The notes: generated by a model from the letters alone, not told the origin. 58,564 nucleotides of DNA from Planctomycetota bacterium (GCA_036146215.1 JAYYJN010000130.1:1-58564); one strand, 5' to 3'. Shown: positions 19,483-58,564, counted from the first letter of the stretch. Translations and numbers: made by a program.

Positions 19483-20823
19483 CTAGCCGCAATCACACGT
19501 CTTCGGGGCTGCATCGCAGCCACAATCTTTCTGGCAAGGCACCGGGCAGCATACTTTGACCGGGACCTGTTTGCAGACGACTTTGGGGACACATCGGGTG
19601 ACCGTGTAAGGGACCCGCTCGCAGACACATTTTTTGCATTTCACGCATTTCGTGTAGTGCACCGGTTTGCAAACCGTGTAGGGCACCATTTTGACACATT
19701 CCTTCTTCACCATTCGACAGCAGGTATAGGGCACCTGGCGCGTGCGTGTTTCCGGCACCATTTTGCAGACCTTGTAGCAGCACGTTTTGACCCGCTTCTC
19801 GGGGACCATGCGGCATACCTTGTAGGTGCAGGTTCGTGTTTCCGGCACCATTTTGCAGACCTTGTAGCAGCACGTTTTGACTTTTGTCTCACGCACGTAC
19901 TTTACACACTGAATGCACTTTTGTTTGACTTCAGGCACCCAGACTTTCTTGCAGACCTTGCGTGGTGGGCACTGCACTTGAACCTTCTTGCAGCAACCGG
20001 GCTTATAGCAGCAACGGCAACGGCACGGATCCCATTCCCACGTGCCAGGAGTTTGAACACACTTTGTCACAACCGGACCGGGGCAACAGGTGACTTGCGT
20101 CTCCCAATGGCCACAACATACGTTAACCGTCTTGGTATAGTGCACTGGCTTGCAGACGGTATAGCAGACGTTCTTGGTCCGCGTCTCGTAGACTGGCTTG
20201 CGGACGGTGTAGCAGCGCGTCTTGGTTTCGTAGACCGGCTTGCAGACGGTGTAGCAGACATTCTTGGTCCGCGTCTCCCAGACTGGCTTGCAGACGGTGT
20301 AGCAGCGTGTCTTGGTTTCATAGACCGGTTTGCAGACGGTGTAACAGACATCCTTGGTTCGGGTCTCCCAGACTGGCTTGCAGACGGTGTAGCAGCGTGT
20401 CTTGGTTTCGTAGACTGGCTTGCAGACGGTGTAGCAGATATCTTTGGTCCGAGTCTCCCAGACTGGCTTACAGACGGTGTAGGTACAAGTCCGATATTTG
20501 GTTTCATAAACCGGCTTGCAGACCGTGTAGCGACATTCTCGGTAGCAGGTCTCAGGGACGTATTTGACGCAATTGATGGTCTTGGTTTCCCACACTGGCT
20601 TGTAGCATGTTTTGTAACACGTGTACTGCTGCTTTTCGTAAACCACTTCTTTACAGGTTTTCATAACCGTGTGGCATTGCTGTTTACAACAACCGTAATC
20701 GGCCGAGCAAACACTTGGGCGACAGCAACGTAAACGTGCGGCACCGCAATAACCGGCATCTGCGGGAGTGGCAACCCAAAAGGATAACGCTGCCAACAGG
20801 GATACGATCAAGACTCGATACAT
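19483..20823 (-). CDS. Secreted cysteine-rich YTV-repeat protein (planctomycetal envelope protein family)
   Basis: Signal peptide MYRVLIVSLLAALSFWVATPADA. Strong SD (GGAGGAGGAGG) before the ATG at 20823. About 69 Cys in 446 aa by my hand count. Alternating units are CYTVCKPVYETKTR / CYTVCKPVWETRTKDV, followed by CCYKVCKMVPETRT units. Confidence 0.8.
   Translation of the reverse strand: MYRVLIVSLLAALSFWVATPADAGYCGAARLRCCRPSVCSADYGCCKQQCHTVMKTCKEVVYEKQQYTCYKTCYKPVWETKTINCVKYVPETCYRECRYTVCKPVYETKYRTCTYTVCKPVWETRTKDICYTVCKPVYETKTRCYTVCKPVWETRTKDVCYTVCKPVYETKTRCYTVCKPVWETRTKNVCYTVCKPVYETKTRCYTVRKPVYETRTKNVCYTVCKPVHYTKTVNVCCGHWETQVTCCPGPVVTKCVQTPGTWEWDPCRCRCCYKPGCCKKVQVQCPPRKVCKKVWVPEVKQKCIQCVKYVRETKVKTCCYKVCKMVPETRTCTYKVCRMVPEKRVKTCCYKVCKMVPETRTRQVPYTCCRMVKKECVKMVPYTVCKPVHYTKCVKCKKCVCERVPYTVTRCVPKVVCKQVPVKVCCPVPCQKDCGCDAAPKTCDCG
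19745..19881. repeat. Second 90-bp-period repeat in the same gene: an identical 47-bp segment at 19745-19791 and 19835-19881
   Basis: cgtgtttccggcaccattttgcagaccttgtagcagcacgttttgac occurs twice, 90 bp apart (encodes CCYKVCKMVPETRT). Confidence 0.9.
20131..20530. repeat. Tandem 90-bp coding repeat array (three full, nearly identical units at 20191-20280, 20281-20370 and 20371-20460, plus partial flanking units)
   Basis: Read directly: gactggcttgcagacggtgtagcagcgtgtcttggtttcgtagaccggcttgcagacggtgtagcagacattcttggtccgcgtctccca recurs with only a few substitutions per unit. Confidence 0.9.
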
Positions 20824-22429: not shown

Positions 22430-22500
22430 TGCCCGGTGGTGTAATGGTAACACTGCGGATTTTGGTTCCGCCATTCCTGGTTCGAGTCCAGGCCGGGTAG
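22430..22500 (+). tRNA. tRNA-Gln (anticodon UUG)
   Basis: Hand-folded cloverleaf. Acceptor TGCCCGG/CCGGGTA (U1-A72, as in bacterial tRNA-Gln). D stem GTGT/ACAC. Anticodon stem GCGGA/TCCGC with loop ttTTGgt. T stem CCTGG/CCAGG with loop TTCGAGT. Discriminator G. CCA is not encoded. Confidence 0.9.
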
Positions 22501-22716: not shown

Positions 22717-25700
22717 ATGCGTAAGGCGGGGCCCGCGATGGCGTCCATCGGTCAAAACGAGGGTGTTATGGAGCATGACTCGGGAAGTTTTTTGAAAGCC
22801 CAGTTTTTACGGCGTCCGCTGCTGTCAGTGTCGCTGACGATCGGTTTGGTGATTGTTCCGGCTGCACTACTTATTGGCGGCCCCTCCATCGTCAGTCATA
22901 CCTCATTGCGCCAGAAAATTGTGCCTTTGGTGCTGCCTAAGCTGAAAGGTACATGTTCGATCGGGGCCGCATCATTGGGCTGGTTTTCTCCGGTCGTGTT
23001 CACCGATGTCGACCTCGATGGTCCTTCAGGTGGGCCGCTGATGCGTGATGGAACCATTGGCATCAATCGGACCCTGTTTGGGTTGATTACTCAAGGTATT
23101 GCAGGTGCCACCATTACCGTTTCAGGAGCGGATATCCACCTGATCGTGGGAGAACACTCCACGAATTGGGAAAAAGCGATAGAAGATATTTTGGCGCAAC
23201 CCGCAGCTGAGGATTCACCGCCGGCAATCACTGCGAAACTTGAAACAATCGATGTCATCATTTCAACTTCAAAGAAAGAAGTCGGTCGTGTTAGCGATTG
23301 GACGCTGTTGGCCCGCTACAGTCCCGAAGATACGTTGCCGCTCACGGTTGAGACGTCGGCTGCGATTGCGGTGGCCGACCGAGACGATTCGCCAGGCCAG
23401 ATCTCGGCGGTTTTACGGTTTTCGCCGGCCAAAAGTGAAGCAGAGTCACCTCTCGGAGAATTGACTTGGGAGACATCAGGTATACAGCTCAAGGCACTTG
23501 GACCCCTCCTCGCACGCGTGTTGCCTGAGAGCACTATCGAAGGTCGAATCACTTCGATTGCGACTATTGATTGGCAGCGTGACATAGCCCGCGTTGAAGT
23601 GAAACTGCTCGGCAGTGATGCGACTTTCCGTTCCCCTACCGTGCTGTCAGGTGAAACACTCAACTTACAGCGGGGTAACCTAGAGTTGCGGGCCACAGCC
23701 GAGGGTAACGCGTTTCAAGTGGAAACGTTCCGTTTCGATTCAGACTTTGCTGAATTCGAATTGACCGCCGTAGGCCGCAACTTGCTAAGGGCGGTTGCGG
23801 TGGCCGAGGAGAATGGAAACCTGTTGTTTGAGAACGTCGAGGCAAGAGGCAAACTGGATTTGCCTCGCTTGACTAATCAGCTTCCTGGCGTGTTTCGACT
23901 TCGCAAAAATACGAAGATTGATTCGGGTCAGGTGCAATTCTCCATGCAACTCGACGCGCTGGAAAGCGGTCGCAAATGGAATGCCGATATTAAGGCTTCG
24001 GAGCTTGCTGCGACCGCCAATGGACGCCCTCTTCGTTGGGAGCAGCCTATTGCGATCCAATTACAACTCCGGGAGTCGCTCGCGGGCAATTGGCAGGGTG
24101 ATGTTTCCTGCGCCAGCGATTATTTGATCGTCAAGGCAAAAGGTTCAACCCAAGCCGGAACCGTCGCGTTGACAGCCGACTTGACTCAACTCAAGGAGGA
24201 TCTTGAACCGCTTCTGGATTTTGGCGGTCTTGAAATCGCGGGCCGGATGCAAGCCAGTATTGATCTTGCTCAAGGAGATCGAAATCAACTTGATTTGAAT
24301 GGACAAGGGATCTTGGAAGGTTTCCGACTTGCAGTGCCAGATGGTGTGCACTTTGAAGATCCGAGAATGACGCTTCGTTTAAGTGCCCGCGCAACGGTTG
24401 CCAATCAGCAGATTGCAGGGGTTGAACAAGCCGAACTTCGTTTTGACTCCTCAGGCGACCAAGCGAGTGTGCAATTGACCGACCCGATTATGATGAACGA
24501 TCTTCCAGCGGCGTTCCCCTTGGAGATCCGCGGCAGTGGCCAACTCGCATCGTGGTTCAAGCGAGTGCCGCTAAAAAAGCAATCGATGACATCCCTGCCT
24601 GAGGGTCGGTTCGATGCAGAAATGCGTGGACGGTTTTCCACCACGGATCTTAGTTTCGAGCACGCGCAAGTCAAAGTGCAGCATTTGAAAATCCCTCTCA
24701 AGACCGGGAACATCGAGCAACCAAGTCTCGTTCTCACTGGGAGCGGTAGATGGGATCGGATAAACGGACAACTCTCGGATGTTGCATTAGCAGCGCGCGC
24801 CCCGGCGGTCGCCGTTTGGACCGAAAAACTAAATGTCACTTTTCCCGCAGCCTTGACTCCCGCATCCTTGACGCCACAGTCCAACACGCAACCATTGCCC
24901 GAGGCAACCGGAACTCTCTATGTGCGAGGTGACCTTGCCGTCCTTCAGCCTTGGATATCTGCCCAAGATGCAGTTAGTCGCTTTTCACTGGCAGGAAAGG
25001 CAGAAGGCAAATTCGCTTTGCAGACTGAAAATCACCAGATCGCCTTCGAGCCGGAATTGGCAATCCGTGATTTTTCGATCCAGCCTGCATCAGATCGGGA
25101 AACACTGGCTGATATTCGGGCTAAGGAATCGCAAGTCCGACCGACTAGCCTTGAGCCGATCTGGGAAGACCAACAACTCACGCTTCGTGGCCGATTGATT
25201 TACGATTATGCCCAGGATCGTCTGCAGATGGAGCGGGTTACTACTGGTTCGCGTGGAATGGGAGTACAAGATCTGGCTGGCAGCATCGAGCAATTGACGG
25301 GACGACCTATTGCGAATTTGCAGGGAGATTTGGTTTATGATCTGGCGCAGGCAACCGAAATGCTATCGCCACATCTTGATGCAGAGTTGGCGATCGTCGG
25401 TAAAGGAAGCAGACCGATTTACTATCGGGGGCCACTTCTTTTCAACTCAACCGACTCGACAGAAATATGGTGGGAAGGTATTGAAGCAGGTGGTGGATTT
25501 TCCTGGGATTTTTTTCAGTTTTTCGGTCTTCGCGGAGGAAAGGGTGCATTTCGTGCTGAACTGAATGAGGGCATCATTCGTGGTACAAGGATCGATATTC
25601 CATTTGGTGGTGGCCAATTGCAAATGGTACCGTTTGTACGATTCGACAGTGGGCCGGCAGTGCTGCTTTTAAGTCAAGACACCATCCTTTCGCGAGCGAT

Positions 25701-26328
25701 GATTACTGAAGCGTTGTGTCGAGACTGGTTGCAATATCTTGCGCCTGTGCTGGCGGATGCGACGCGGACCGAAGGTCAGTTTTCGATCCGCTTGACCCGC
25801 TCGGTGGTTCCAGTGGAGGCTCCCGAAGCGGCAACACTGGAGGGCACATTAACAATCCATGAGGCACAGATACGTCCAGGGCCTGTGACCGAGCAGATTG
25901 CAACGATCGCTGCTCAGGTGGATGCAATCATCAATCGGCGACCGACCCCAAATGATCCGGTTTTAAAGATTGACCCTCAAGAGGTTCCGTTCCGTATGGT
26001 CGCCGGTCGGATCGAGCACCATCAGTTTGAAATAGAAATCGGCGATGTGGTCGTGCGGACAAGTGGATCAGTTGGACTGGATCAAACGCTCGATTTGGTT
26101 GCCGAAATACCGATCCTTCAGAAATGGGTCGACCGCGATCCAATTCTCCGCGGACTTGCCGGGCAAACGCTTAAACTTCCCATTCGGGGCACAGTCCAAA
26201 ACCCGAAAATAGACCCCAAAGCGATCGGCAAACTCAGCAAACAGATGTTGCAGGGGACCGCGAACGGGTTTCTGAATGATGCGATTGATCGGGGCCTGCA
26301 GAAGGGCTTGCAAGAACTCTTTCGTTAA
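22717..26328 (+). CDS. Large (about 1200 aa) membrane-anchored AsmA/TamB-like protein
   Basis: A single N-terminal TM (LLSVSLTIGLVIVPAALLIGG) is followed by a long, repetitive, beta-rich sequence. The C-terminal VVRTSGSVGLDQTLDLVAEIPI...LKLPIRGTVQNPKIDP resembles AsmA-like C-terminal regions. The start is ambiguous (22717, 22738 or 22768). Confidence 0.5.
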   Translation: MRKAGPAMASIGQNEGVMEHDSGSFLKAQFLRRPLLSVSLTIGLVIVPAALLIGGPSIVSHTSLRQKIVPLVLPKLKGTCSIGAASLGWFSPVVFTDVDLDGPSGGPLMRDGTIGINRTLFGLITQGIAGATITVSGADIHLIVGEHSTNWEKAIEDILAQPAAEDSPPAITAKLETIDVIISTSKKEVGRVSDWTLLARYSPEDTLPLTVETSAAIAVADRDDSPGQISAVLRFSPAKSEAESPLGELTWETSGIQLKALGPLLARVLPESTIEGRITSIATIDWQRDIARVEVKLLGSDATFRSPTVLSGETLNLQRGNLELRATAEGNAFQVETFRFDSDFAEFELTAVGRNLLRAVAVAEENGNLLFENVEARGKLDLPRLTNQLPGVFRLRKNTKIDSGQVQFSMQLDALESGRKWNADIKASELAATANGRPLRWEQPIAIQLQLRESLAGNWQGDVSCASDYLIVKAKGSTQAGTVALTADLTQLKEDLEPLLDFGGLEIAGRMQASIDLAQGDRNQLDLNGQGILEGFRLAVPDGVHFEDPRMTLRLSARATVANQQIAGVEQAELRFDSSGDQASVQLTDPIMMNDLPAAFPLEIRGSGQLASWFKRVPLKKQSMTSLPEGRFDAEMRGRFSTTDLSFEHAQVKVQHLKIPLKTGNIEQPSLVLTGSGRWDRINGQLSDVALAARAPAVAVWTEKLNVTFPAALTPASLTPQSNTQPLPEATGTLYVRGDLAVLQPWISAQDAVSRFSLAGKAEGKFALQTENHQIAFEPELAIRDFSIQPASDRETLADIRAKESQVRPTSLEPIWEDQQLTLRGRLIYDYAQDRLQMERVTTGSRGMGVQDLAGSIEQLTGRPIANLQGDLVYDLAQATEMLSPHLDAELAIVGKGSRPIYYRGPLLFNSTDSTEIWWEGIEAGGGFSWDFFQFFGLRGGKGAFRAELNEGIIRGTRIDIPFGGGQLQMVPFVRFDSGPAVLLLSQDTILSRAMITEALCRDWLQYLAPVLADATRTEGQFSIRLTRSVVPVEAPEAATLEGTLTIHEAQIRPGPVTEQIATIAAQVDAIINRRPTPNDPVLKIDPQEVPFRMVAGRIEHHQFEIEIGDVVVRTSGSVGLDQTLDLVAEIPILQKWVDRDPILRGLAGQTLKLPIRGTVQNPKIDPKAIGKLSKQMLQGTANGFLNDAIDRGLQKGLQELFR

Positions 26329-37210: not shown

Positions 37211-39769
37211 ATGTCGGCTGCCACCAAACTCCAAAACGCATCCCATCGCCGGTCCGGTGCCCAAAGGGTTCTGGCTGCACTTGCGTTGTTGCTGGCGTTT
37301 TCAGGTTGCCGTAGTTTTTATGACCAATCGACCCCTCCTCCGCCTGCGGTAGGTGGTCCCGGTGCGGTGAGTATTCCGTCGGTGGATGGAATCGCACCGA
37401 TTGCTCCGCCTCCTCCTCCGCCAGGCCCGGGCGCGGTGCCCCCTTCGACTCCACCAGACCCCCCACGATTCGGGTTGTTTGACTCCTTCGGTCGTGGTGG
37501 TGTGGCAGACGCTCGGCTGACGCTTTCTCCGCAATCCATTGTTGCGCCCGTCGGAAGCGAAGTCGTGTTGATTGGTGGCATTACCAACAATCAAGGCAAG
37601 GGTGCGGTGAGTGAGCGCATTGATTGGATGCTTTCACCAGAGAGTGTGGGCGAGTTTATGACAGTTGATAAGAGCCCGAGCTGTTTACTCTTGAGATTTC
37701 CTTCCAATCGTCCACGCAAGGTTACCAACAATTATGCCATCAGCAGCACCACGACCGCTCGCAAGGCCATCAACCGTGGGACCGCCACACCTCAGGACAA
37801 CGTTGTGATAGAAAGGGGACAAACCTGGGTGACTGTCAGTTCTCCAACCGACGGTGTGAGTTATGTGACCGCATTTGCCCCGAATGTTCCAGCGTGGGAA
37901 TTAAGAAAACAGAATGCCACAATTTATTGGGTAGATGCCCAGTTTTCCTTCCCGGCCCCCGCCATCGCTCCGATTGGAGAACGTCATACTTTTACCACGG
38001 TTGTGACGCGACTCAGCGATGGATCACCATTAGAGGGCTACGTGGTTCGTTATCGTTCGACCGATGGCAATGCGGTGTTCGCGCCCGCCGGAAATCCAAT
38101 GGTTGAAATGCTGACTGACGCCGAAGGAAGAGCATCCGCCGAAATCTATCAACCGAATCCAGGTCGTGGGAACACCCAAATTCAGATGGAAGTGATTCGT
38201 CCAGCTGGCAGGAATAATGCGGCTGATCGTCGCTTGGAGGTGGGTCGGGGTGCGACTTCAATGACATGGACCGCACCTGGCGTTTCGCTTGATGTGACCG
38301 GCCCACCCAGTAGTTCAGTCGGTTCGCAGGCAAGTTTTCAGGTCGTCGTTACCAATAACGGGGATATGCCACTGCAGGATGTCACGGTTTCGCATCGCGT
38401 CCCTGCACCCCTTGAGTTTGTAAACAGCAGCGTGCAGGCGACGCGCGATAGGGACAACTTGAAATGGAATATCGGCCAATTGGCGGCAGGTCAAACAGAG
38501 ACGATTATCATTGATTACAAAGTTCTCAGCTCGGGAAGTGCCCGGAATTGTTTTTCCGTAACCAGTGCGGAGCAAGTGCAGGATCAGGCTTGTATTGATC
38601 TGAATACCACCGAACCGCAACTGGAACTCAACGTTTCTGGACCGACCACAGCCATGGTGGGCCAGAGTGTCACATACCAGATTTCGATTACTAATCGGAG
38701 TCGAAGTCCGCTTTCTGGATTGATTGTCAAAAATACGTTTGACGACGGCTTGAAGCATGCAGTTGCCGCAAGTCCGATTGAGCGAGACTTGGGAACACTC
38801 GGACCAGGACAAACCCTAGATGACATCAGCGTAACTTTCCAAGCAACGCGGCCAGGGAAACTTTGCCAAACGGTCGAAGTGCTGAGTCTCGGGGCCACTG
38901 CATCGAAACAATCAATCTGTCTCACGGTCGATCAGCAGAAGCTTCAACCCGCCATGAAAATTGAAAAACGGGGACCGACTACTGCGAAAGTCGGTGAGAC
39001 TATTATCTTTGAAAGCCTAATTACAAATACGGGAAATGCGCCGCTCGAGAACGTGACAGTGATCGACACTTTCGAGCGCGGTTTGGAGCCGACTCGAGTT
39101 TCGGATGGTTATCAAATTGAAGAAGATCAATTGACGTGGAAGTTTAACCAGATTGCACCGGGACAAACAGAACGCCTGCAAGTAGAGGTGCAATGCAAAG
39201 AGGCGGTGCGTGCCTGCAGTCGTTTGACGGGCACGGCCGTTGGGGATCTGGTGATGGCGGATGAGGCGTGTGTGCAAATCATTCAGGCTACTGCTGCCCC
39301 TCCTGTGACCGGACCTCCCGTAACCGGCGGACCAACCGAACCCGGGACCGCGCCGCTTGCGCCGTCTGGTTCGGCTGAAAATGCTGAAGTGGGGGACGTG
39401 CTGTCATTGCGAGTCACCGACCTCAGAGATGAGGTCCCGATCGGGGGCACCGTCGTATACGAGGTCACGGTCACAAATCTTCAGAATGTTCCCGACGCAA
39501 ACGTTGTAGTCATCGTCACAGTGCCCGAGGGTTTAGCGCCCACATCGGGTGGAGTGGGAATTGTCGCTCCGAGCAATCCGAACATCGGTCAACGTGTCAT
39601 TCGCTTTAATCCGGTTGCGGAAATCCGCCCTGGTGAATCACTGATCTATCGTATTCCTATCCAAGCTGAGCAAGCGGGTCAGTTCCGATCTCAGATCCGA
39701 GTCACGAGCGATGGACAGCGACGGCCATTGATAAAAACCGAAGATTCGAGTGTTTTTCAGGATCGATAA
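37211..39769 (+). CDS. DUF11-repeat (OmcB-like conserved repeat domain) envelope protein, probable lipoprotein, with Pro-rich N-terminal spacer
   Basis: Lipobox-like LALLLAFSGC, then a PPPP-rich stretch. At least five repeats follow of the DUF11 pattern (VG..v.Y.i.vtN.g..pl..v.V.d....GL......). Most end in a Cys...Cys pair (NCFSV...QACIDL; KLCQTVEV...SICLTV; RACSRL...EACVQI). Confidence 0.7.
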   Translation: MSAATKLQNASHRRSGAQRVLAALALLLAFSGCRSFYDQSTPPPPAVGGPGAVSIPSVDGIAPIAPPPPPPGPGAVPPSTPPDPPRFGLFDSFGRGGVADARLTLSPQSIVAPVGSEVVLIGGITNNQGKGAVSERIDWMLSPESVGEFMTVDKSPSCLLLRFPSNRPRKVTNNYAISSTTTARKAINRGTATPQDNVVIERGQTWVTVSSPTDGVSYVTAFAPNVPAWELRKQNATIYWVDAQFSFPAPAIAPIGERHTFTTVVTRLSDGSPLEGYVVRYRSTDGNAVFAPAGNPMVEMLTDAEGRASAEIYQPNPGRGNTQIQMEVIRPAGRNNAADRRLEVGRGATSMTWTAPGVSLDVTGPPSSSVGSQASFQVVVTNNGDMPLQDVTVSHRVPAPLEFVNSSVQATRDRDNLKWNIGQLAAGQTETIIIDYKVLSSGSARNCFSVTSAEQVQDQACIDLNTTEPQLELNVSGPTTAMVGQSVTYQISITNRSRSPLSGLIVKNTFDDGLKHAVAASPIERDLGTLGPGQTLDDISVTFQATRPGKLCQTVEVLSLGATASKQSICLTVDQQKLQPAMKIEKRGPTTAKVGETIIFESLITNTGNAPLENVTVIDTFERGLEPTRVSDGYQIEEDQLTWKFNQIAPGQTERLQVEVQCKEAVRACSRLTGTAVGDLVMADEACVQIIQATAAPPVTGPPVTGGPTEPGTAPLAPSGSAENAEVGDVLSLRVTDLRDEVPIGGTVVYEVTVTNLQNVPDANVVVIVTVPEGLAPTSGGVGIVAPSNPNIGQRVIRFNPVAEIRPGESLIYRIPIQAEQAGQFRSQIRVTSDGQRRPLIKTEDSSVFQDR

Positions 39770-49269: not shown

Positions 49270-51360
49270 ATGAAACGTTGGATAATTCGGTTATCGATCT
49301 TGGGTGGCAGCATGGTTTGCGGCTGGTTTGCAATTGCCGAGGTGCAGCGGTCGCAAGAGGACCCGATAATTCGCTCGGTTGCGGCAAATGATGAGGTCCC
49401 TTCTCCGAGTGCATCGACATATCGATCGAATAATGATGTTGGTTTTTCGCAACCATCTCGTCCAGCAGTCATCGATCCGGGCGCCGCGTTTGCGTCTGCA
49501 GCCGATCAAGCATCAAAAGCATCGGGAGCATCGACCAAGGATTCGATTCCCCCAGCAACCAATCCGCCACGTCGCGATGCCTTCGAGCTTGCCCCACCCG
49601 CGGCCGCGGCGGCAGAGGCGACATCCCGCGTCGAGACAAAAGCTACAATAGATCGCTATGCTCAGGCGGCAGTTGGCAACCGTTATCCGAATAGTACACC
49701 AGCGCCCAACGTGCCGGGGTCTTTGCCCGCGGAGATAAAAAATGCAACGCCATTGACGCAACCATCGCCTGGTGCGCCGCGTTATCCGGCGGCGGGTCCC
49801 TCGACCCCTTCGGCGAATGGCCCTGAAAACAGGTATGCATCCCCGCCCCCTCGTGCGACACCGCCTACACCTCCTGTCTCATCGTCCGCGTCTACATCTC
49901 CGAAAAGTTGGGGTAACGTGTCTGCGGCAGTGCCTGCTGCTGCCGCTGGCGCGACGAGCGAAGCGATCGGTCGACCGGGCGGTCGTCATCAAGAAGGCCC
50001 ACAAGGGCCGCAGATGGTTGTCGAAAAGGTGGTGCCTCAAGAGATTCAAGTCGGTAAACCGACCACGTTTGATATCAAAGTAGTCAATCGCGGAAATGTA
50101 ACGGCCTACGATGTGCGAGTGAAAGATGAGATCCCTTATGGCACCCGTCTGCTCAGCACAAAGCCGACAGCGCAGTCGATTCAGGGAGGCGTTATCTGGG
50201 ACCTCGGCCATTTCGAACCCGGGGAGGAAAAATTTGTCGAAGTCCGTCTGATGCCGGAGGCGGAAGGCGAAGTCGGAAGTGTCGCTTCGGTTACATTTGC
50301 CACACGGGCATCTGCTCGAACCCTGGCAACGAGGCCACTCTTGAAGATTGACGCTAGTAGTGCCGGGCAGGTCATGATCGGCGATCAGATTCAAGTAGAT
50401 ATCACAGTTGCTAATCTGGGGAGCGGAATTGCACGAGATGTCGTGCTGTTCGAAACGTTACCGGGAGAGTTGCGTCATCCGGCCGGTGCCGATCTTGAAT
50501 TTGCAGTCGGTGATCTTGCGCCGAAAGAAAGTCGGAAAATTAATTTAGTGATGACCGCGGCCCGGGCCGGAGTCGTTAAAAACGTGCTATCGGCTCGCGG
50601 AGAAGGAAGCCTGTCAGCAGAAACTAATTTCGAGTTTGAGATTATCGCTCCGCAGTTGTCGGTTGCCATTTCAGGACCACGGCGTCGTTATCTGGAGCGG
50701 CAGGCGACTTATACGGTGAAAGTCGCAAATCCCGGAACAGCAGCGGCGCAAGATATCGAGTTGGTTTCGCGGCTACCTCGCGCGATGCAGTTTGTCTCTG
50801 CCAATAACGCGGGCCACTACGATGCCTCAACGCATGCAGTCTACTGGAGTTTGCAGGAACTTCCCGAGGGTGAGCAGGGTCAAGTGCAATTGGTAACCCT
50901 GCCGACTGAGGCGGGTGACCATACGCTCCGAGTTGAAAGCACTGCCCGCGGCGAATTAAGTGACTCCAGCGAGGAGACTGTCAAGGTAGAGGGTCTCTCG
51001 GCACTCTTTTTCGAAGTTGTCGATCTTGAGGATCCGGTGGAGGTGGGTCGCGATACGGCCTACGAAATTCGGGTGCTCAATCAGGGAACCAAAGTGGCGC
51101 GAAACATTATTGTGGCCGCACTCTTGCCGGATGACTTGAAGCCGCTTTCCACCGAAGGGCCGACACAGGGTTCGATTCAGGGAAATCAGGTAGTGTTTCA
51201 ACCGCTGCCACGTCTGGCTCCCAAAGCGGACACTACTTTCACCGTGCGAGCTCAAGGCGTACATCCAGGTGATCAGCGAGTACAGGTTCAAATCCAGAGT
51301 GATGATTTGAAGACTCCGGTGACCAAGGAAGAGAGCACTAAGGTCTATTCCGACCGGTGA
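49270..51360 (+). CDS. DUF11-repeat envelope protein (paralogue of 37211..39769) with N-terminal anchor and long Pro/Ala-rich spacer
   Basis: N-terminal hydrophobic LSILGGSMVCGWFAIA. About 230 aa of P/A/S-rich low complexity. Four DUF11-like repeats follow (VGKPTTFDIKVVNRGNVTAYDVRVKDEIPYGTRL...). The C-terminal domain and terminus (...QIQSDDLKTPVTKEESTKVYSDR) parallel ...RVTSDGQRRPLIKTEDSSVFQDR of the 852-aa protein. Confidence 0.7.
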   Translation: MKRWIIRLSILGGSMVCGWFAIAEVQRSQEDPIIRSVAANDEVPSPSASTYRSNNDVGFSQPSRPAVIDPGAAFASAADQASKASGASTKDSIPPATNPPRRDAFELAPPAAAAAEATSRVETKATIDRYAQAAVGNRYPNSTPAPNVPGSLPAEIKNATPLTQPSPGAPRYPAAGPSTPSANGPENRYASPPPRATPPTPPVSSSASTSPKSWGNVSAAVPAAAAGATSEAIGRPGGRHQEGPQGPQMVVEKVVPQEIQVGKPTTFDIKVVNRGNVTAYDVRVKDEIPYGTRLLSTKPTAQSIQGGVIWDLGHFEPGEEKFVEVRLMPEAEGEVGSVASVTFATRASARTLATRPLLKIDASSAGQVMIGDQIQVDITVANLGSGIARDVVLFETLPGELRHPAGADLEFAVGDLAPKESRKINLVMTAARAGVVKNVLSARGEGSLSAETNFEFEIIAPQLSVAISGPRRRYLERQATYTVKVANPGTAAAQDIELVSRLPRAMQFVSANNAGHYDASTHAVYWSLQELPEGEQGQVQLVTLPTEAGDHTLRVESTARGELSDSSEETVKVEGLSALFFEVVDLEDPVEVGRDTAYEIRVLNQGTKVARNIIVAALLPDDLKPLSTEGPTQGSIQGNQVVFQPLPRLAPKADTTFTVRAQGVHPGDQRVQVQIQSDDLKTPVTKEESTKVYSDR

Positions 51361-51568
51361 GCAGGCAGGCCACACGTCAGTGAAGGTTTGGCCGCATGGT
51401 TTGCCTAGCCGATAAAAACAACGGCAAAACTATTAAATTTTATGTCGTTTCTCCCCCTCCGGTTTGACCGCCCCTGACAACGCAATTATCTTGATTGATG
51501 GGACCGAAAGGCACGGCCCTAGGTCATTCGCAGATCCGTATTCAAGATATTTGAGTGGGAGTGCATTC

Positions 51569-52705
51569 ATGGCGATAGCCGACAGCAAGGCGGGTACCGA
51601 AGCGGAATCTGCTGGAAAGCAACGAGAAGAAGCACAGCAATCAGTCGTTTGTTCCTACAACGAGTGGGATCCGCTGGAGGAGGTGATTGTTGGCCGCGTC
51701 GATGGCGGAGCAGTGCCTCCCTGGCATGTCACCCTCCAGGCAGCTACCCCGCAAGAGTCATGGGAACTTCTCAAATTGCTCTCCGGGAAACCGGCCCCCG
51801 ATGCCATGGTGCAGGCCGCCCAACGCGATCAGGCTGAGTTCGTTGCAATTTTAGAAGCAGAGGGAATAAAAGTCAGAAGGCCCGATCCGATCCCTCAAAC
51901 CGAAAGCTTTCGGAGTCCCGACTGGGAGGTAGAGTCCGCATACAATATTGCCAACCCACGCGATGGCCTGCTCGTGATCGGTGACGAAATTATCGAAACG
52001 CCGATGGCATGGCGCAGTCGCTATTTCGAAATGAATGCATATCGAAGTCTGCTTCAAGAATATTTTAAGGCCGGTGCGCGGTGGACGGCCGCACCTCGTC
52101 CTCGTCTGGCAGATTCACTCTATAACGAGGAATGGAAATTGCCGGAACAAGGAGATCCACTTCAATTTGCGATCAATGAAACGGAGTGTTGTTTTGATGC
52201 AGCCGACTTTGCCCGCTGCGGTCGCGATCTCTTCGTGACACGGAGCAACGTGACTAATTATTTTGGAATTGATTGGCTGCGTCGCCATCTCGGCAGTGAG
52301 TTTTCGATTCATGAAATCAAAACAAAGTCACGGCAGCCCATGCACATTGATACGACGTTTGTTCCGCTCTGTCCGGGTCGGGCGCTCTATAGCCCGGACT
52401 TCTTTGATCCCAGTGATGCCCCGGAAGTGCTGAAGAGTTGGGAACTACTGCCGGCACCGGCACCAGTCAGCACGATGGTGCAAATGATCGATCTGAGCAG
52501 TGCATGGCTGAGCATGAACGTTTTGATGCTTGATGAGAAGCGGGTGATTTGCGAGGCAAGTCAGGAACCGCTCATTGAGAAATTCCGTGAATGGGGCTTC
52601 GAACCAATTCCCTGCCCTTACACGAATCATTACGTGTATGGCGGTGCGTTTCACTGCTCCACACTCGATATCCGCAGGCGAGGTTCATTGCAATCGTATT
52701 TCTAG
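51569..52705 (+). CDS. L-arginine:glycine amidinotransferase-type (AGAT/GATM, StrB1/CyrA family) amidinotransferase
   Basis: SYNEWDPLEEVIVGRVDG, PMAWRSRYFEMNAYRSLLQEYFKAGARWTAAPRP, CFDAADFARCGRDLFVTRSNVTNYFGIDWLRRHLG, PMHIDTTF, WLSMNVLMLDEKRVI, and GGAFHCSTLDIRRRGSLQSYF (catalytic Cys). These are collinear with vertebrate GATM as I recall it. ATG at 51569. Confidence 0.9.
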   Translation: MAIADSKAGTEAESAGKQREEAQQSVVCSYNEWDPLEEVIVGRVDGGAVPPWHVTLQAATPQESWELLKLLSGKPAPDAMVQAAQRDQAEFVAILEAEGIKVRRPDPIPQTESFRSPDWEVESAYNIANPRDGLLVIGDEIIETPMAWRSRYFEMNAYRSLLQEYFKAGARWTAAPRPRLADSLYNEEWKLPEQGDPLQFAINETECCFDAADFARCGRDLFVTRSNVTNYFGIDWLRRHLGSEFSIHEIKTKSRQPMHIDTTFVPLCPGRALYSPDFFDPSDAPEVLKSWELLPAPAPVSTMVQMIDLSSAWLSMNVLMLDEKRVICEASQEPLIEKFREWGFEPIPCPYTNHYVYGGAFHCSTLDIRRRGSLQSYF

Positions 52706-52789: not shown

Positions 52790-55396
52790 TCAAATCACTT
52801 CCGTCGATTTGCTTTTTGCTTGAAAAAGCTTGCCCGCCGGACTGGCCAAAAGTGAAGGTAGAAAAATAAGATCGCCCACCAGTGCGGCTAGCAATAGAAG
52901 AAACATCAACAAGCCAAACTGGGCGACCGGCTGAAAAGAACTCAGCGAAAAGACGACCAAACCGAGGCCTGCAATCAAGGTGGTTTGCGTCATCGCCAAG
53001 GCGCACCGTCGGTAACTGTAAAGCACCGCTTCTTCGCGACTCATTTCCGCAGCAATTCCGCGACGAAACCATGTGAGAAAGTGGACCGTATCGTCCACTG
53101 CAATTCCCATTGCGACGCTTGCCGTCATCATCGAGCCGATGTCCACAATTCGATCGGTCCACCCCATCCACCCAAAAATGACAGCCGCAGGAAAAACATT
53201 CGGCAGCATCGACACTAATCCCGAAGCGAAGTTTCGGAACCAGACAACCATCATCACAGCAATCAGTAAAAACGCAATTACAAAGCTCTCAAAAAGTCCG
53301 TTCAGTAATTCACGCTGCGCAATATGAAACAGAGGTACCAGTCCCGTATATTCCACATCGACCCCGACAGCATCATCCGCCACAGCCCGCATGATATTAT
53401 CAAATTTTTTTGTCTGGTTGGTTAGCATTACGTCATATTTTTGCTTCACTTTCTCCAAGCATTCTTCCGCGTTCGCGGTGTCTTTGCAGGCTGCGCTCTC
53501 TTCAGCAACTTTTTGCTTCACAAGTTCTTTTAATTTTTTTAATTGCAGTTTTGCCTTCTTTTGTTTTCTCTGACTTTCAGCACTGCGCCTTGCCAGGAAG
53601 CTATCTACGTGCTCTTCGATTTGTAGAATGACTTGGTCATAGTCTTTCTCGCCCGGTCGAATTCGCGCGCTGATTCGCCAGAGGTCTTCCCCAGTTTGCG
53701 GCTCCTCCTCGGTTCCTTCCTTCGCGCTGCCCGTTACACGCGGGACCGGTGCAACTTCCTTCGCTGCGTTTTCATAGCTGTAATAATGGACGTTGTGATA
53801 ATCGGAGCGATTGGCTGCCAGGCGTTTATTCATCACGAACTGCGTGTAATGCCCCTCATCGAGTTCCGGCGCGAACGTGGCGGCCGAAATCGAATGGCTG
53901 ATCAGATCGGATTGATTTTGCTTGAGGTCTTTCTCGATTGCCGATATCAACCGCATCTGACCCAGTGTGGTTAACTTTGACTTTTCGCGGTTGAATGCGA
54001 CCACAATTTCCAGGGGTATCTGGTTGCCGAATCGCTCAGGGGTGGAAAGCCATTCATAGTCGGTGATCAGCCGATGCTTCGGGTCAAAAAAACGAGCTGG
54101 CTTGACCGAAGTGTTGATATAAAGGGATCCAAAGCCGAAGAAAATGAGTAGCCCGATACACGCGCAAAGAATCGGCCAACGGTATGTAATAACTTTTGTA
54201 GCCAACCATTCGACGACTCGATTGAATATTCCGTCGAACGCTGCTTTTGATTCTAAATCGCAACCTTCATTTGCTTTTTTCGCAAATTTCTGAATGAGAA
54301 CAAGCAATGCCGGTAAAAGCAGAAACAGCACCGTAAGGCTCGCAATAATTCCGAGTGCAGAAAATTTTCCGAAATCCTTTACGGGAATAATATTGCTCAC
54401 CGAGAGCGAACCGAGACCGATTGCCGTTGTTCCCGCTGCCAGCGTACAGGGCATCCACCCGAGGCGGATGGCTGTTGCAGGCGCGTTGGTTACACCCTTC
54501 TCAGCGACGGTGTCCTGGTAATAGTTGATTAGGTGCACACCAGCGGAGAGACTAAGAACGTAGACCAGAACGGGCATTACAACGAGTACAAGATTCACGC
54601 GACCCCCAAACACTGGCACCAGGGATTGCGCTAGCAGAGCACTATAAACGGCGACAAAGAAAATGAGCATTGCAAGCGTGAAGCTGTACAAAAGCCCTCG
54701 GATCCAATGTTCGGAGCGGCGACCATGAGCGAAGAAAAAACTGGTGACGGCACAGGTAAGTGCAATCAACATGGAATAGCCAACGAGCGAATCAGTGGCC
54801 CTCTGGCTTTCTACATCCACCGCCGCATTGGTGACCGCGTCTCCCGCCATGTGGATCGAATCAGACGGGATTTTTAAATCGTCAACGAGCAGTTCTCTGA
54901 GCGATGCAATTGCCTCTCGGCGATCATTATCCCCGGCTTCAGTTAATTCAATGACCGCCGCGCTTGATTTGCCATCTTTACCGATCAGAATCGATTCCAA
55001 CCGCTCGCGGGCAAGACTCTCGCTCAAATCGAACGGCTTGGCTTGCAACTTTTCCAGCAATTCCGGACCGGTCGTAACTTTTGCAAACAGCTTTTCACCA
55101 GACTCATTTTTATAATTGCGTGCGAGCGATGCGAACTCGGGAAGTCGCGGGTCGGTCAGTGTGCATCCTTTCCAACTTACGATTGCATACTCATCGGTGC
55201 CGAAATGCGCACGAAATTCGGCATAAATTTTTGTTTCATCAAAATTATTTTCTGGGAGCCACTGTTTTATGTTGTTGTTGTTGGTTTCTTCGGATTTGAT
55301 CACGCTCAGTGTGATCGGATAGATCGACACCAGGGATGCAATTAAGATCCAAAGATAAAAGCGATCGTAAAAGGTTGATCGGTTTAATTCCGACAT
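52790..55396 (-). CDS. MMPL/RND-superfamily exporter (HpnN/MmpL-like, two 6-TM bundles) with a charged coiled-coil-like insertion
   Basis: There are two blocks of hydrophobic helices, each preceded by a large soluble loop. A lysine-rich insert (QRKQKKAKLQLKKLKELVKQKVAEE...) lies between them. The C-terminal bundle motif MGIAVDDTVHFL is typical of the RND/SSD family. The ATG at 55396 is preferred over the TTG at 55432. Confidence 0.8.
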   Translation of the reverse strand: MSELNRSTFYDRFYLWILIASLVSIYPITLSVIKSEETNNNNIKQWLPENNFDETKIYAEFRAHFGTDEYAIVSWKGCTLTDPRLPEFASLARNYKNESGEKLFAKVTTGPELLEKLQAKPFDLSESLARERLESILIGKDGKSSAAVIELTEAGDNDRREAIASLRELLVDDLKIPSDSIHMAGDAVTNAAVDVESQRATDSLVGYSMLIALTCAVTSFFFAHGRRSEHWIRGLLYSFTLAMLIFFVAVYSALLAQSLVPVFGGRVNLVLVVMPVLVYVLSLSAGVHLINYYQDTVAEKGVTNAPATAIRLGWMPCTLAAGTTAIGLGSLSVSNIIPVKDFGKFSALGIIASLTVLFLLLPALLVLIQKFAKKANEGCDLESKAAFDGIFNRVVEWLATKVITYRWPILCACIGLLIFFGFGSLYINTSVKPARFFDPKHRLITDYEWLSTPERFGNQIPLEIVVAFNREKSKLTTLGQMRLISAIEKDLKQNQSDLISHSISAATFAPELDEGHYTQFVMNKRLAANRSDYHNVHYYSYENAAKEVAPVPRVTGSAKEGTEEEPQTGEDLWRISARIRPGEKDYDQVILQIEEHVDSFLARRSAESQRKQKKAKLQLKKLKELVKQKVAEESAACKDTANAEECLEKVKQKYDVMLTNQTKKFDNIMRAVADDAVGVDVEYTGLVPLFHIAQRELLNGLFESFVIAFLLIAVMMVVWFRNFASGLVSMLPNVFPAAVIFGWMGWTDRIVDIGSMMTASVAMGIAVDDTVHFLTWFRRGIAAEMSREEAVLYSYRRCALAMTQTTLIAGLGLVVFSLSSFQPVAQFGLLMFLLLLAALVGDLIFLPSLLASPAGKLFQAKSKSTEVI

Positions 55397-55624
55397 GCCA
55401 GATATTCCAGCAAGCTGGGGCCCAAAAGCCAACAGTGACGAGGAATTTTTTAGGGTGGGACAACTCTAAGGATTGCGCAAGAAAAAATTCTTAACGCGAT
55501 CGACTGGGCAGGTTCATTTTGATCGCTCTCCCAGCAGTACGTTATCATACCAACGCAGTCTAATGGTTTGGCAGACTGATATTTCTACTCTTTCCTGCAA
55601 TGGAAACACAGAGCCGGGAGTAAA

Positions 55625-55652
55625 ACGCAGAAACTACGACGATTTTCTGCGT
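55625..55652. other. 9-bp perfect hairpin (ACGCAGAAA-10 nt-TTTCTGCGT) in the divergent intergenic region; on the minus strand it is followed by TTTT
   Basis: Read directly. It lies about 200-230 nt upstream of the MMPL start, so it may be a 5-prime-UTR structure or attenuator. No further support. Confidence 0.3.
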
Positions 55653-55948
55653 GGGTAGACTACGCTGATTATGGCAATTCCTTGGCTCGTAGGAAACGAT
55701 TAACGCATTTAAACTCGATATTTCAGGCCAAAATTGGTTGAAGAGCTGAAAGCGGGGGGGTATGCTAGGGTTCCCGTGCAGAAGGCCCTTTAAGAGGGAT
55801 TTCTGGATCGGATGCAAGGAGCAAAAATGCGAAGGATTGGTGAGACACGCGGGTATGCGTGCTCGGATGCGCGACATGGATCGTGACATTTACCCGCGAT
55901 AGATGAAGACCGAACAAGCACGTATCACCCGGCTCGACCAATCCAAAG

Positions 55949-58564
55949 ATGAAATTCGCCTTCATAGTGCATCCTCTCTCCGAGGAAAGCAAAGCCCTTT
56001 GGCAGATGGATGACGGTGGTCAGTTACTATCCCATTGGGAAAATGGCAATCTCCTAGAAATCTGCGATTTCGTCCAAGGTCGCATGGCTGAAGGAGTCGC
56101 CTTTGGTAGTCGCGCTAAAGATTATCCGATTGTGCTCGATCAATTCGCGGGCTTGCGAACAAAAACCGGTTGTGAGACAGAGGGACGAGTCTACGAAATT
56201 CCGTGCAGTCCGAAGCAGATTCTCGAAGACCCCGCGACAGCTATCGAACAGACCCAGGCGGCCGTGAACATGGCTGCGGACTGGGGTGCGGGCATTGTTG
56301 GTCTCGGCTCACTCACCAGCGTTGTTGGCGGACATGGTCAGTACATTGCTGAGAATAGTCCAATCCCGATCACCACCGGGAACAGCCTCACAGTCTATGC
56401 GGCATTAAAAAATCTGCAGCATGCCTGCAGTGAACTGTCTATTGACCTTACCACCGAGACGGTGACAGTGATCGGTATCCCTGGCAGTATCGCCACGGCG
56501 ATTGCGAGAATGCTTCGAGAGAAAGTGGGAAACATGATCCTCGTTGCGCGTCGCCCTTCCCCGAGAGCGGCTCGTATCGCAGCCGAACTTGACAGCGAAC
56601 TTGTCTTTGATATTCCATCGGCCTTGGCGAATTCGCGGTTAATTCTTTCAGCCACATCGAGTGGTAGTTGCATCGCACAGGAGATGCTTCAGGCAGGCAG
56701 CGTGGTGATTGATGTGGGAGTTCCGGCCGACGTTACCCGTTCGGCGCGTCGTCGCAGCAATGTCCTTGTCGTCTCGGGAGGCCTTGTGGATGTGCCGAAA
56801 AGTTTTCTGGGTAAATCGATGCTATTGGGTTTCCATTTCGGACTCGTGCCAGGCTGTCTTGCTGAGACCATCAATTTGGCACTGGAGGATCGCGGGGAGA
56901 GTTTTTCGCTGGGTCGTGATTTAAGCATTGACCGAATTGAAGAGATTGGATCCATTGCCACGCGGCATGGGTTTTCCTTCTCGCAACTCTCTTCATACGG
57001 TCGACCGGTGCCCGATTCCCTTTGGGCAAGTATGAATAAAGTTGTGCTTTGTCGTTTGTCAGAACAAAATCCCGATGGCGAGGCTCGAAGTCGCGATGGT
57101 GTCGCCGAAGCGAAGGTGAATCAACACGTGAGCGACGGTTACGATGCAGATGCTCATGCCAGAAATGGTTTAAAACGATCAACCGACCACAAATCTGAAA
57201 AGCGGATTAAGCAAGAAGAATCCAAAATCAGAAACCGTCGTGCTCGAACACTTTTTCAGCGATATGTGAACCCCGTATTGGTCAATCTTGCCGAGCAAGG
57301 TGGACTCAACAAAACCTTCGTGCGAGGCGAAGACGCGGTGCTCACTGATGCCGAGGAAAATCACTACCTTGACTTTGTTTCTGGTTTTGGTTCGGTCAAT
57401 CTCGGTCACAATCACCCGAGGGTTGTGCAGGCGGTTCGTGAAGCACTCGACGAAAGTGTTGCTGGATTTTCTCCGGCGGCCATCAATCCATATGCTGCGA
57501 CTTTGTCGGAGCGACTGGTATCGATTGCGCCGGCGGGTCTGGAAATGGTCTTTTTCTGTAACAGCGGCACCGAATCGGTTGAGGCGGCTCTGAAACTTGC
57601 GCGGTCGGCGACCGGACGAACGGGGATTGTCTACTGTCATGGCTCCTATCACGGCAAGTCATTGGGTGCCCTTTCGGTTACCGGGAATCGTGGTTATCAG
57701 CGACCGTTTGCACCGCTGGTTCCGGATTGTCATCCGATTCCGTATGGCAACCTTGAGGTCCTCGAGAGAATCCTCGCGTCGCAGAATATGGCAGCGTTCA
57801 TCGTGGAACCGATCCAGGGAGAGGGGGGGATGATTCTTCCCCCGGCCGGTTATCTTGCGGAGGCAGAGCGTCTCTGTAGACAGGCGGGAACGCTAATGAT
57901 TGCCGATGAAGTCCAAACGGGAATGGGCCGCACAGGAACTATGTTTGCTAGTGAGCAAGCGGCGATTGAGCCGGATATTCTGTGCGTCGCCAAGAGCCTC
58001 AGTGGTGGGCTGGTGCCGATCGGTGCCATGCTGGCTCGTCGTGACCTCTGGATGAAGTCGTATGGCACTGTCGATCGATTTGCCTTGCACACCAGCACGT
58101 TTGGCGGGGGAAGTCTTGCCTGTGTTGCGGGCCTGGCGACAATTGAAACGCTCGTCGAGGAACGACTGGCCGAAAATGCAGCCCAAAGGGGTTTTCAAAT
58201 TCTGGAGGGCTTGAATGAGATTCGTCAGGAGTTACCAGATTATTTTCAGGATATTCGCGGACAGGGATTGATGATTGGTGTGGAACTCTCACCTCTGGCG
58301 GAATCGGTGATTACACATCTGAAGCGAACGGATTCGACGGGCATGCTGCAATATATGATGCAGGGAATGGATGCGATGATTGCCAGTTTCCCCACGGTTT
58401 TTCAAATGCAGATATTGCTTGAGCATTACCATATCTATACTCAAGTTGCACGTTCCAATCCTTTGGTATTGCGTATCCAACCGCCGCTCACGATCGATGC
58501 AGGTAAAGCGGCACATTTTATTACCTCCTTTTCCCGAACGTGTCGCCTTGGGCATAAAGTGGAA
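55949..58564 (+). CDS. Fusion protein: N-terminal acyl-ACP-reductase-like (AAR/HemA-type NAD(P)H thioester reductase) domain + charged linker + class-III (omega) aminotransferase; 872 codons, open at the right edge
   Basis: Absent from the ORF track. I translated it by hand: ATG at 55949, in-frame stop upstream at 55904, no stop to 58564, and the length is an exact multiple of 3. N domain: MKFAFIVHPLS..., GLGSLTSVVGG, TTGNSLTVYAA, VTVIGIPGSIATAIARML (Rossmann), and VPGCLAETINLALE (Cys303, codon 56855-56857), which aligns with the catalytic Cys region of cyanobacterial AAR. Aminotransferase domain: DFVSGFGSVNLGHNHP, FFCNSGTESVEAALKLAR, EPIQGEGG, IADEVQTGMGRTG, CVAKSLSGG (PLP Lys682, 57992-57994), HTSTFGG. 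Confidence 0.8.
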   Translation, partial: MKFAFIVHPLSEESKALWQMDDGGQLLSHWENGNLLEICDFVQGRMAEGVAFGSRAKDYPIVLDQFAGLRTKTGCETEGRVYEIPCSPKQILEDPATAIEQTQAAVNMAADWGAGIVGLGSLTSVVGGHGQYIAENSPIPITTGNSLTVYAALKNLQHACSELSIDLTTETVTVIGIPGSIATAIARMLREKVGNMILVARRPSPRAARIAAELDSELVFDIPSALANSRLILSATSSGSCIAQEMLQAGSVVIDVGVPADVTRSARRRSNVLVVSGGLVDVPKSFLGKSMLLGFHFGLVPGCLAETINLALEDRGESFSLGRDLSIDRIEEIGSIATRHGFSFSQLSSYGRPVPDSLWASMNKVVLCRLSEQNPDGEARSRDGVAEAKVNQHVSDGYDADAHARNGLKRSTDHKSEKRIKQEESKIRNRRARTLFQRYVNPVLVNLAEQGGLNKTFVRGEDAVLTDAEENHYLDFVSGFGSVNLGHNHPRVVQAVREALDESVAGFSPAAINPYAATLSERLVSIAPAGLEMVFFCNSGTESVEAALKLARSATGRTGIVYCHGSYHGKSLGALSVTGNRGYQRPFAPLVPDCHPIPYGNLEVLERILASQNMAAFIVEPIQGEGGMILPPAGYLAEAERLCRQAGTLMIADEVQTGMGRTGTMFASEQAAIEPDILCVAKSLSGGLVPIGAMLARRDLWMKSYGTVDRFALHTSTFGGGSLACVAGLATIETLVEERLAENAAQRGFQILEGLNEIRQELPDYFQDIRGQGLMIGVELSPLAESVITHLKRTDSTGMLQYMMQGMDAMIASFPTVFQMQILLEHYHIYTQVARSNPLVLRIQPPLTIDAGKAAHFITSFSRTCRLGHKVE

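Follow-up and report, generated by a model that had tools for sequence, protein, structure and literature searches.

PigE, whose counterpart in Hahella is HapE, is a bifunctional enzyme of prodigiosin synthesis in the gammaproteobacterium Serratia. It carries on one chain an N-terminal thioester reductase domain resembling AAR, the reductase that acts on acyl-(acyl carrier protein), with a conserved cysteine (Cys296), and a C-terminal class-III transaminase (Couturier et al. 2021; PMC8341465). Lysate of Escherichia coli expressing PigE converts a 3-acetyloctanoyl thioester into the cyclised amine H2MAP (PMC8341465). Of the amino donors, ornithine or arginine gave the best response with PigE. 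Both an analogy to the pair glutamyl-tRNA reductase (GluTR)–glutamate-1-semialdehyde aminomutase (GSAM) and channelling of the aldehyde have already been proposed for it (PMC8341465). Here we describe a gene of the same type at the end of a 58,564-nucleotide stretch of DNA from a Planctomycetota bacterium (GCA_036146215.1, JAYYJN010000130.1:1-58564), the whole of which we call the window. A sequence-only reading of the window had implied that this fusion was novel, but that is not borne out, because the architecture, the cysteine, the GluTR–GSAM analogy and channelling were all published in 2021.

Fusions of the same two activities in the opposite order have also been described. TamH (tambjamine YP1), KecF, PP_2782 and their thermophilic homologues likewise join a pyridoxal-phosphate (PLP) transaminase to a Cys-dependent, AAR-related reductase, but in them the transaminase comes first and the reductase second, which the authors read as convergent fusion (PMC10829540). 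In the TamH reaction an acyl chain is off-loaded reductively and then transaminated to a fatty amine; together with KecF/PP_2782 and the thermophilic homologues, this group turns activated fatty or polyketide acyl groups into amines and has been promoted for fatty-acid-to-amine biocatalysis (PMC10829540). Reverse-order fusions are also covered in PMC9594044. The design of reducing a thioester and then aminating the product is not new, being documented for PigE, TamH and KecF/PP_2782. The biocatalytic interest that the sequence-only reading saw in such a module is real, but its newness is not, since fusions of this kind have already been exploited (PMC10829540; PMC9594044).

The product of the planctomycete gene has the PigE-type architecture, with an N-terminal AAR-like domain and a C-terminal class-III aminotransferase on a single polypeptide. 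Its parts are as follows.

55949..58564, plus strand: PigE-like bifunctional protein, cut by the window end (open frame; NCBIfam PigE model NF053554, 775.9 bits over residues 44-866; collinear with PDB 4ppm)

55949..57010, plus strand: AAR-like thioester reductase domain, residues ~1-354 (phmmer against PDB, conservation, AlphaFold2 model and Foldseek)

57011..57250, plus strand: charged, poorly conserved interdomain linker, residues ~355-434 (AlphaFold2 confidence, composition, alignment)

57251..58564, plus strand: class-III (omega) aminotransferase domain, residues ~435-866+ (Pfam PF00202, PigE alignment, Foldseek)

Translated over its whole length, the interval contains 872 sense codons and is free of stops, so the frame is open from the ATG at 55949 to the window end, as had been read from the sequence. 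The closest in-frame stop on the 5' side is a TGA at 55904, and as the stretch from there to 55949 is devoid of ATG, GTG and TTG, the ATG at 55949 is the earliest usable start. The N-terminus that it specifies, MKFAF.VHPL, is almost invariant in an alignment of 24 fused homologues with an overall identity of about 50%. The open reading frame (ORF) is not listed in the ORF track because, by convention, ORFs running off a source end are left out. A TARA Oceans contig (L001), which is 99.35% identical in nucleotide sequence across the ORF, carries the whole gene, encoding a protein of 920 residues (P0001). About 48 C-terminal residues, predicted to be disordered, fall past the window end (872 of ~920 codons are within it), and the transaminase fold is whole inside the window because the alignment to PigE extends to residue 846 of 861. 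The three motifs on which the sequence-only reading relied can be placed exactly: the Rossmann motif GIPGSIATA at residues 176-184 (nucleotides 56474-56500), the cysteine motif VPGCLAETINLALE at residues 300-313 (56846-56887), and the PLP-lysine motif AKSLSGG at residues 681-687 (57989-58009).

Both domains of the full protein align collinearly with PigE (PDB 4ppm), with a score of 500.9 bits; residues 64-354 align with PigE 49-347, and residues 435-866 with PigE 397-846. The two proteins have the same domain order, the conserved cysteine (C296 in PigE, C303 here), a linker and the KSLSGG lysine motif. Their transaminase domains are ~39% identical (Foldseek), and the mechanism proposed for PigE, from thioester through aldehyde to amine, would be common to both (PMC8341465). 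They differ in the linker, which is longer and more charged here (that of PigE spans residues ~348-396), and in the host, a marine planctomycete as against Serratia. NCBIfam's top match, by a wide margin, is to the PigE model, but the score is below the model's cut-off of 850 bits and no pig gene was recognised among the neighbours examined, so we rejected membership of PigE proper, the prodigiosin 2-methyl-3-n-amylpyrrole (MAP) equivalog. No pig/hap gene, whether pigD (a thiamine-diphosphate enzyme), pigB (an FAD oxidase) or the genes for 4-methoxy-2,2'-bipyrrole-5-carbaldehyde (MBC), was recognised in the 18 kb upstream in the window or in 9 kb downstream in L001 and a second contig, L002. 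To our knowledge no prodiginines are known in Planctomycetota. Because of the sub-cut-off score, the lack of pig neighbours, the differing linker and the planctomycete host, 3-acetyloctanoyl thioester would be an unexpected substrate for this protein.

Homology searches, structure comparison and conservation establish the identity of both domains and of their catalytic residues. With the N-terminal domain as query, phmmer searches of PDB matched the PigE N-terminal domain (4ppm; E = 2.7e-47) and the AAR of Synechococcus elongatus (E = 8.6e-20). The domain contains a TTGN motif (residues 142-145), a Rossmann GxPGS motif (residues 176-180) and a putative acyl-accepting cysteine, Cys303. In the phmmer alignments Cys303 lines up with the catalytic cysteine of the AAR 'FACFAE' motif (C294) and with the conserved cysteine of PigE (C296), which confirms an alignment that had been made by eye. 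Residues T142, T143, G144, N145, G176, P178, G179, S180, R201, C303 and, in the transaminase, K682 are invariant among the 24 fused homologues, and C303 is invariant too in 27 mostly stand-alone relatives of 350-390 residues. An AlphaFold2 model of residues 1-360 has a predicted local distance difference test (pLDDT) score of 85.8 and a predicted template-modelling (TM) score (pTM) of 0.86, and in Foldseek its top matches are AAR structures (TM-score 0.74-0.81), followed by the carmabin terminal amidation domain (TAD).

Other assignments of this domain fared less well. Pfam gives just a weak match to the NAD-binding domain of Shikimate_DH (residues 164-273), and the domain is of AAR type with Cys303 in place, which sets it apart from the Cys-less shikimate or amino-acid dehydrogenase that the sequence-only reading had named as a refuting assignment. 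Matches to GluTR are marginal (E = 0.0035-0.045 over 60-75 residues) and confined to the NADPH-binding domain. Of the label 'AAR/HemA-like' that the sequence-only reading gave the domain, the first half therefore stands on the phmmer and Foldseek results, and the second is valid at the superfamily level only. Membership of the GluTR (HemA) family itself was rejected, there being no significant full-length similarity that includes the catalytic and dimerisation domains.

Comparison with the described relatives of the N-terminal domain places the protein more closely. Structurally, cyanobacterial AAR (6jzu/6jzq/6jzy) comes closest; it is 24% identical, and its Cys, TTGN and Rossmann motifs all line up with those of the domain. 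However, AAR is a stand-alone protein of ~340 residues whose aldehyde product goes to an aldehyde-deformylating oxygenase (ADO) to make alkanes, whereas here the domain is fused to a transaminase. No ADO-like gene is present among the annotated neighbours in the window and L001/L002, and we rejected an assignment to the alkane pathway. The TADs of carmabin and vatiamide (9e4s and others) are the second-best structural class, with a TM-score of ~0.7 and with the invariant Cys and Thr-Thr-Gly in common, but they end nonribosomal peptide synthetase (NRPS) modules, are NAD-specific, have ~15% identity to our domain and are proposed to yield terminal amides; there is no NRPS here. The HemA and HemL pair shows the same succession of a Cys-thioester reduction, a labile aldehyde and a class-III PLP enzyme, so the design analogy drawn in the sequence-only reading is a sound one, as it was when drawn earlier for PigE (PMC8341465). 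HemA and HemL are two separate proteins, however, and HemL is an aminomutase rather than a transaminase with an external donor.

The linker and the C-terminal domain were also much as had been read from the sequence. A charged linker had been placed at residues ~350-430, and we find it at roughly 355-434; it is rich in R, S, A, D, K and E, has no defined alignment consensus, and is disordered in the full-length AlphaFold2 model (pLDDT <50 across residues 374-417). The C-terminal part had been called a complete class-III aminotransferase with its PLP lysine. It matches Pfam Aminotran_3 (PF00202) with E = 1.4e-95 over residues 457-800, and the lysine, K682 in AKSLSGG, pairs with that of the PigE motif sKSLSGG. 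Against the PigE C-terminal domain it scores 338.5 bits over residues 435-866, and in a Foldseek search with the C-terminal domain of the full-length model PigE 4ppm ranks first (target-normalised TM-score 0.86), followed by the putrescine aminotransferase YgjG.

By analogy with AAR and PigE, the protein is probably a PigE-type thioester reductase/transaminase that produces a primary amine. The N-terminal domain would load an acyl group from acyl-(acyl carrier protein) or acyl-coenzyme A (CoA) onto Cys303, and NAD(P)H would then reduce the acyl-enzyme to a free aldehyde. NADPH is the likely cofactor, because the invariant Arg201 comes after the second Rossmann strand. The PLP-dependent C-terminal domain would transaminate the aldehyde to a primary amine with an amino acid as donor, and the flexible charged linker that joins the domains may keep the reactive aldehyde local.

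The family is large and planctomycete-centred. Searches with the protein returned 363 proteins at E ≤ 1e-10, of which the best 120 are fused, mostly full-length (~850-990 residues) and at least 48% identical to the query; among these 120, all source names that give an organism point to planctomycetes. Counted with one genome per species, relatives are found in 199 species-level genomes, and the best 80 of the 199 are all labelled as Planctomycetota or one of its lineages, including Planctomycetaceae, Pirellulales, Gemmataceae, Thermoguttaceae and Isosphaeraceae. Stand-alone relatives of the N-terminal domain (350-390 residues, 33-38% identical) occur in other phyla, for example Bacillota and Armatimonadota. 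The protein thereby represents, within the PigE-type family, a large clade of planctomycetes and a member outside prodigiosin synthesis. Homologues are annotated generically or mis-annotated in databases, as '3-acetyloctanal' or 'putrescine' aminotransferase. Five N-domain-only proteins (P0125, P0130, P0134, P0140 and P0144; 416-474 residues, 43-52% identity with the reductase domain described here), on contigs of 230 kb to 2.8 Mb, may be truly split fusions or frameshifted genes.

Upstream of the fusion gene in the window are two genes and an intergenic region of possible relevance to its function.

51464..52705, plus strand: SxtG/AGAT-family amidinotransferase, candidate N-amidinating enzyme (PDB matches)

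52790..55432, minus strand: divergent MMPL/HAE3-type resistance–nodulation–division (RND) transporter, candidate exporter (Pfam MMPL, E = 9.7e-21)

55433..55948, no strand: divergent intergenic region of 516 bp between the transporter gene and the fusion gene, presumably a shared regulatory region

Enzymes of the SxtG/AGAT type are uncommon in bacteria. The one encoded here matches SxtG (6u1r, E = 9.3e-120) and human AGAT (E = 1e-100) in PDB, and has no Pfam or NCBIfam match. The transporter scores 107 bits against the NCBIfam HAE3 model and 52.6 bits against HpnN, both far under the cut-offs. Promoter-like and terminator-like matches in the 516-bp region do not exceed shuffled expectation. 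No Rfam family is found there at the gathering threshold in a search of the whole window, whose sole Rfam match is a tRNA gene at 22430-22500 on the plus strand (RF00005, 56.7 bits). The 18 kb upstream and 9 kb downstream together contain the transporter, the amidinotransferase, DUF11 proteins and, in L001/L002 past the window end, a C25 peptidase, a cyclase-like protein, a PNP_UDP_1 protein and IspH. The rest of the window looks like ordinary planctomycete chromosome, with YTV repeats, DUF11/CLIPPER proteins, SRP54, tyrosyl-tRNA synthetase and IspD. Two large DUF11/CLIPPER-repeat proteins (37211-39769 and 49270-51360, both plus strand) and a protein with seven YTV repeats (19483-20823, minus strand) belong to surface-protein families typical of planctomycetes and lend support to the window's taxonomic placement. 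Two ORFs, at 22717-26328 (plus strand, 1203 residues) and 2861-3997 (plus strand, 378 residues), have no Pfam match at E ≤ 1e-4.

To compare neighbourhoods, ORFs were called in 86 loci and the window and clustered by BLASTP, and the target gene was dereplicated at ≥70% identity, which left 43 lineages. In 26 of the 43 there is at least one candidate amine-modifying enzyme (N-modifying or sulfotransferase) within 5 kb. Counted over the same distance, the recurrent families, in which the commonest is a Gcn5-related N-acetyltransferase (GNAT), are as follows.

FemAB_like/Acetyltransf_6 GNAT: 18/43 lineages, adjoining the fusion gene in 16

Condensation/PapA5/WS-DGAT-like acyltransferase: 6/43 lineages

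MMPL/HAE3 transporter: 5/43 lineages, adjoining in 3

Second GNAT: 4/43 lineages

Formyltransferase: 4/43 lineages

Amidinotransferase: 3/43 lineages

A sulfotransferase is also recurrent near the fusion gene, and an enzyme resembling long-chain fatty-acid–CoA ligases adjoins it in six loci. Amidinotransferase genes adjoin the fusion gene in three independent lineages–the window's clade, L012 and L033–with differing gene orders, and in L033 the called amidinotransferase and fusion ORFs overlap. No pig-like family is found among the annotated recurrent neighbours of the 86 loci. The FemAB_like/Acetyltransf_6 protein, of ~400 residues (for example in L005, L006, L009, L014, L016 and L022), is an uncharacterised partner enzyme that matches nothing in PDB or NCBIfam; in L006 a FA_desaturase resembling sphingolipid desaturases lies between the fusion gene and the FemAB-like gene. 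Literature searches on planctomycete PigE-like enzymes, fatty amines, amidinotransferases or guanidines, and FemAB_like PF04339 found nothing relevant.

Unlike the present family, TamH, KecF and PP_2782 each belong to a defined secondary-metabolite cluster that has its own carrier proteins. A tblastn search with E. coli AcpP found an ORF resembling acyl carrier protein in only one of the 86 loci, L071. This ORF (L071 12655-12822; 37.5% identical to AcpP over 56 residues) is found just downstream of the PigE-like gene; one of the called ORFs that come next encodes a FemAB-like GNAT, and L071 may be the best locus in which to pin down the native carrier and substrate. The most likely acyl substrate of the family is a fatty or fatty-like chain from primary metabolism, which is consistent with the presence of a dedicated carrier gene in just this one locus.

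The neighbourhoods suggest that across the clade the amine probably undergoes a further, lineage-specific N-modification by acylation, formylation or amidination. In the window's marine lineage the SxtG-like enzyme would amidinate the amine to a guanidine, which the divergent MMPL protein would export. We regard this amidination-and-export step, which is proposed from gene content, as possible but doubtful. Speculatively, amidination and transamination could be coupled, because arginine-dependent amidination yields ornithine and PigE favours ornithine or arginine as donor.

Several points weigh against a reductase/transaminase with these downstream steps. Purified PigE was without reductase activity in vitro, and only the lysate worked (PMC8341465), while the activity that we infer for the planctomycete clade rests on homology to AAR and PigE. 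Domains of the AAR superfamily, such as the carmabin TAD, may perform chemistry beyond simple reduction. The interdomain arrangement in the full-length AlphaFold2 model is uncertain (pLDDT 73, pTM 0.56), which bears on channelling. On the genomic side, the amidinotransferase link depends on three lineages, the MMPL protein resembles characterised transporters weakly, and the neighbours are heterogeneous, with 17 of the 43 lineages having no informative neighbour within 5 kb; the gene may act in a dispersed pathway.

One alternative, which we consider unlikely, is that the protein essentially transaminates polyamines or amino acids, as putrescine, ornithine or acetylornithine aminotransferases do, and that its N-terminal domain is vestigial or regulatory, so that no thioester is reduced. 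After PigE, the nearest characterised relatives of the C-terminal domain are indeed YgjG/PatA (308-359 bits) and ArgD or ornithine aminotransferase (OAT), and many homologues are annotated by the Joint Genome Institute as putrescine aminotransferase. One close structural relative of the neighbouring amidinotransferase is HsvA, itself an amidinotransferase and one reported to use polyamines. The NCBIfam scores, however, are far under the curated equivalog cut-offs (PatA 359.2 versus 612 bits, ArgD 312 versus 457, OAT 252.7 versus 378.4, and a BioA-type model likewise), so we rejected a canonical ArgD, putrescine or ornithine aminotransferase; the sequence-only reading had named a canonical ArgD/GabT orthologue, present as the genome's only copy, as the result that would overturn it. 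Moreover, the protein is most similar to PigE over both domains, and the invariance of the Cys, TTGN and Rossmann motifs across the clade argues against a degenerate N-terminal domain.

A role in hopanoid synthesis, which we judge very unlikely, is suggested by the genes downstream. The fusion protein would be an analogue of HpnO that aminates ribosylhopane aldehyde to aminobacteriohopanetriol, with the AAR-like domain as an accessory redox unit and the MMPL protein as an HpnN-like transporter. Beyond the fusion gene and the C25 peptidase there is a run of genes for a squalene-hopene-cyclase-like protein, a PNP_UDP_1 protein with a weak match to HpnG (40 bits) and IspH (L001 9132-13061; L002 14702-18587), and the MMPL gene is upstream. 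Rhodopseudomonas palustris has an hpnN/hpnO/shc/hpnG/ispH cluster, which this set of RND transporter, class-III aminotransferase, cyclase, nucleosidase and IspH resembles. Squalene-hopene cyclase (SHC) is also reported to be common in Planctomycetota in a preprint on hopanoid genomics that contains no relevant link (PMC12324291). However, the cyclase-like protein is weak against SHC (88 bits, cut-off 431) and against PDB (~63 bits, with the C-terminal repeats alone significant), and in the window's lineage it has no D.DD at the place of the catalytic DxDD of SHC. The HpnN and HpnG scores are far under their cut-offs, the surrounding 10 kb showed no hpnH, this gene order occurs in just 2 of the 43 lineages although the fusion gene is phylum-wide, and formation of ribosylhopane aldehyde requires no thioester reductase.

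Lastly, N-domain-only proteins of 380-470 residues (43-52% identity) on long contigs attest that unfused forms exist, but an assembly or sequencing artefact that joined a COG5322 reductase gene and an aminotransferase gene by frameshift is scarcely credible against 872 codons without a stop, a fusion that recurs in the best 120 of the 363 homologues from independent assemblies and sources and in the 80 genomes listed, the independent TARA contig and the crystallised PigE construct; a hidden stop or frameshift merging two genes is excluded, as hundreds of homologues of ~850-1000 residues keep the collinear two-domain layout, and the single-gene claim of the sequence-only reading stands.

Abundant planctomycete relatives are found beside amine-modifying and lipid-handling genes, which points to an uncharacterised family of amine, possibly guanidine, metabolites. 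A bolder proposal, to which we give rather little credence, is that the clade supplies the committed enzyme of an undescribed and widespread pathway from fatty acyl thioesters of primary metabolism to long-chain primary amines that are N-decorated according to lineage: here as alkylguanidines that the SxtG-like enzyme makes and the MMPL protein exports or flips, elsewhere as N-acylated, aminoacylated or formylated products. If this were true, Planctomycetota, a phylum in which the chemistry of lipids and natural products is little known, would contain cationic amine or guanidine lipids of a new class, and the PigE of prodigiosin synthesis would be a recruited offshoot of an older planctomycete family. 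Being large and diverse, the clade is also a natural source of PigE-type fusions in which fatty-acid-to-amine catalysts could be sought.

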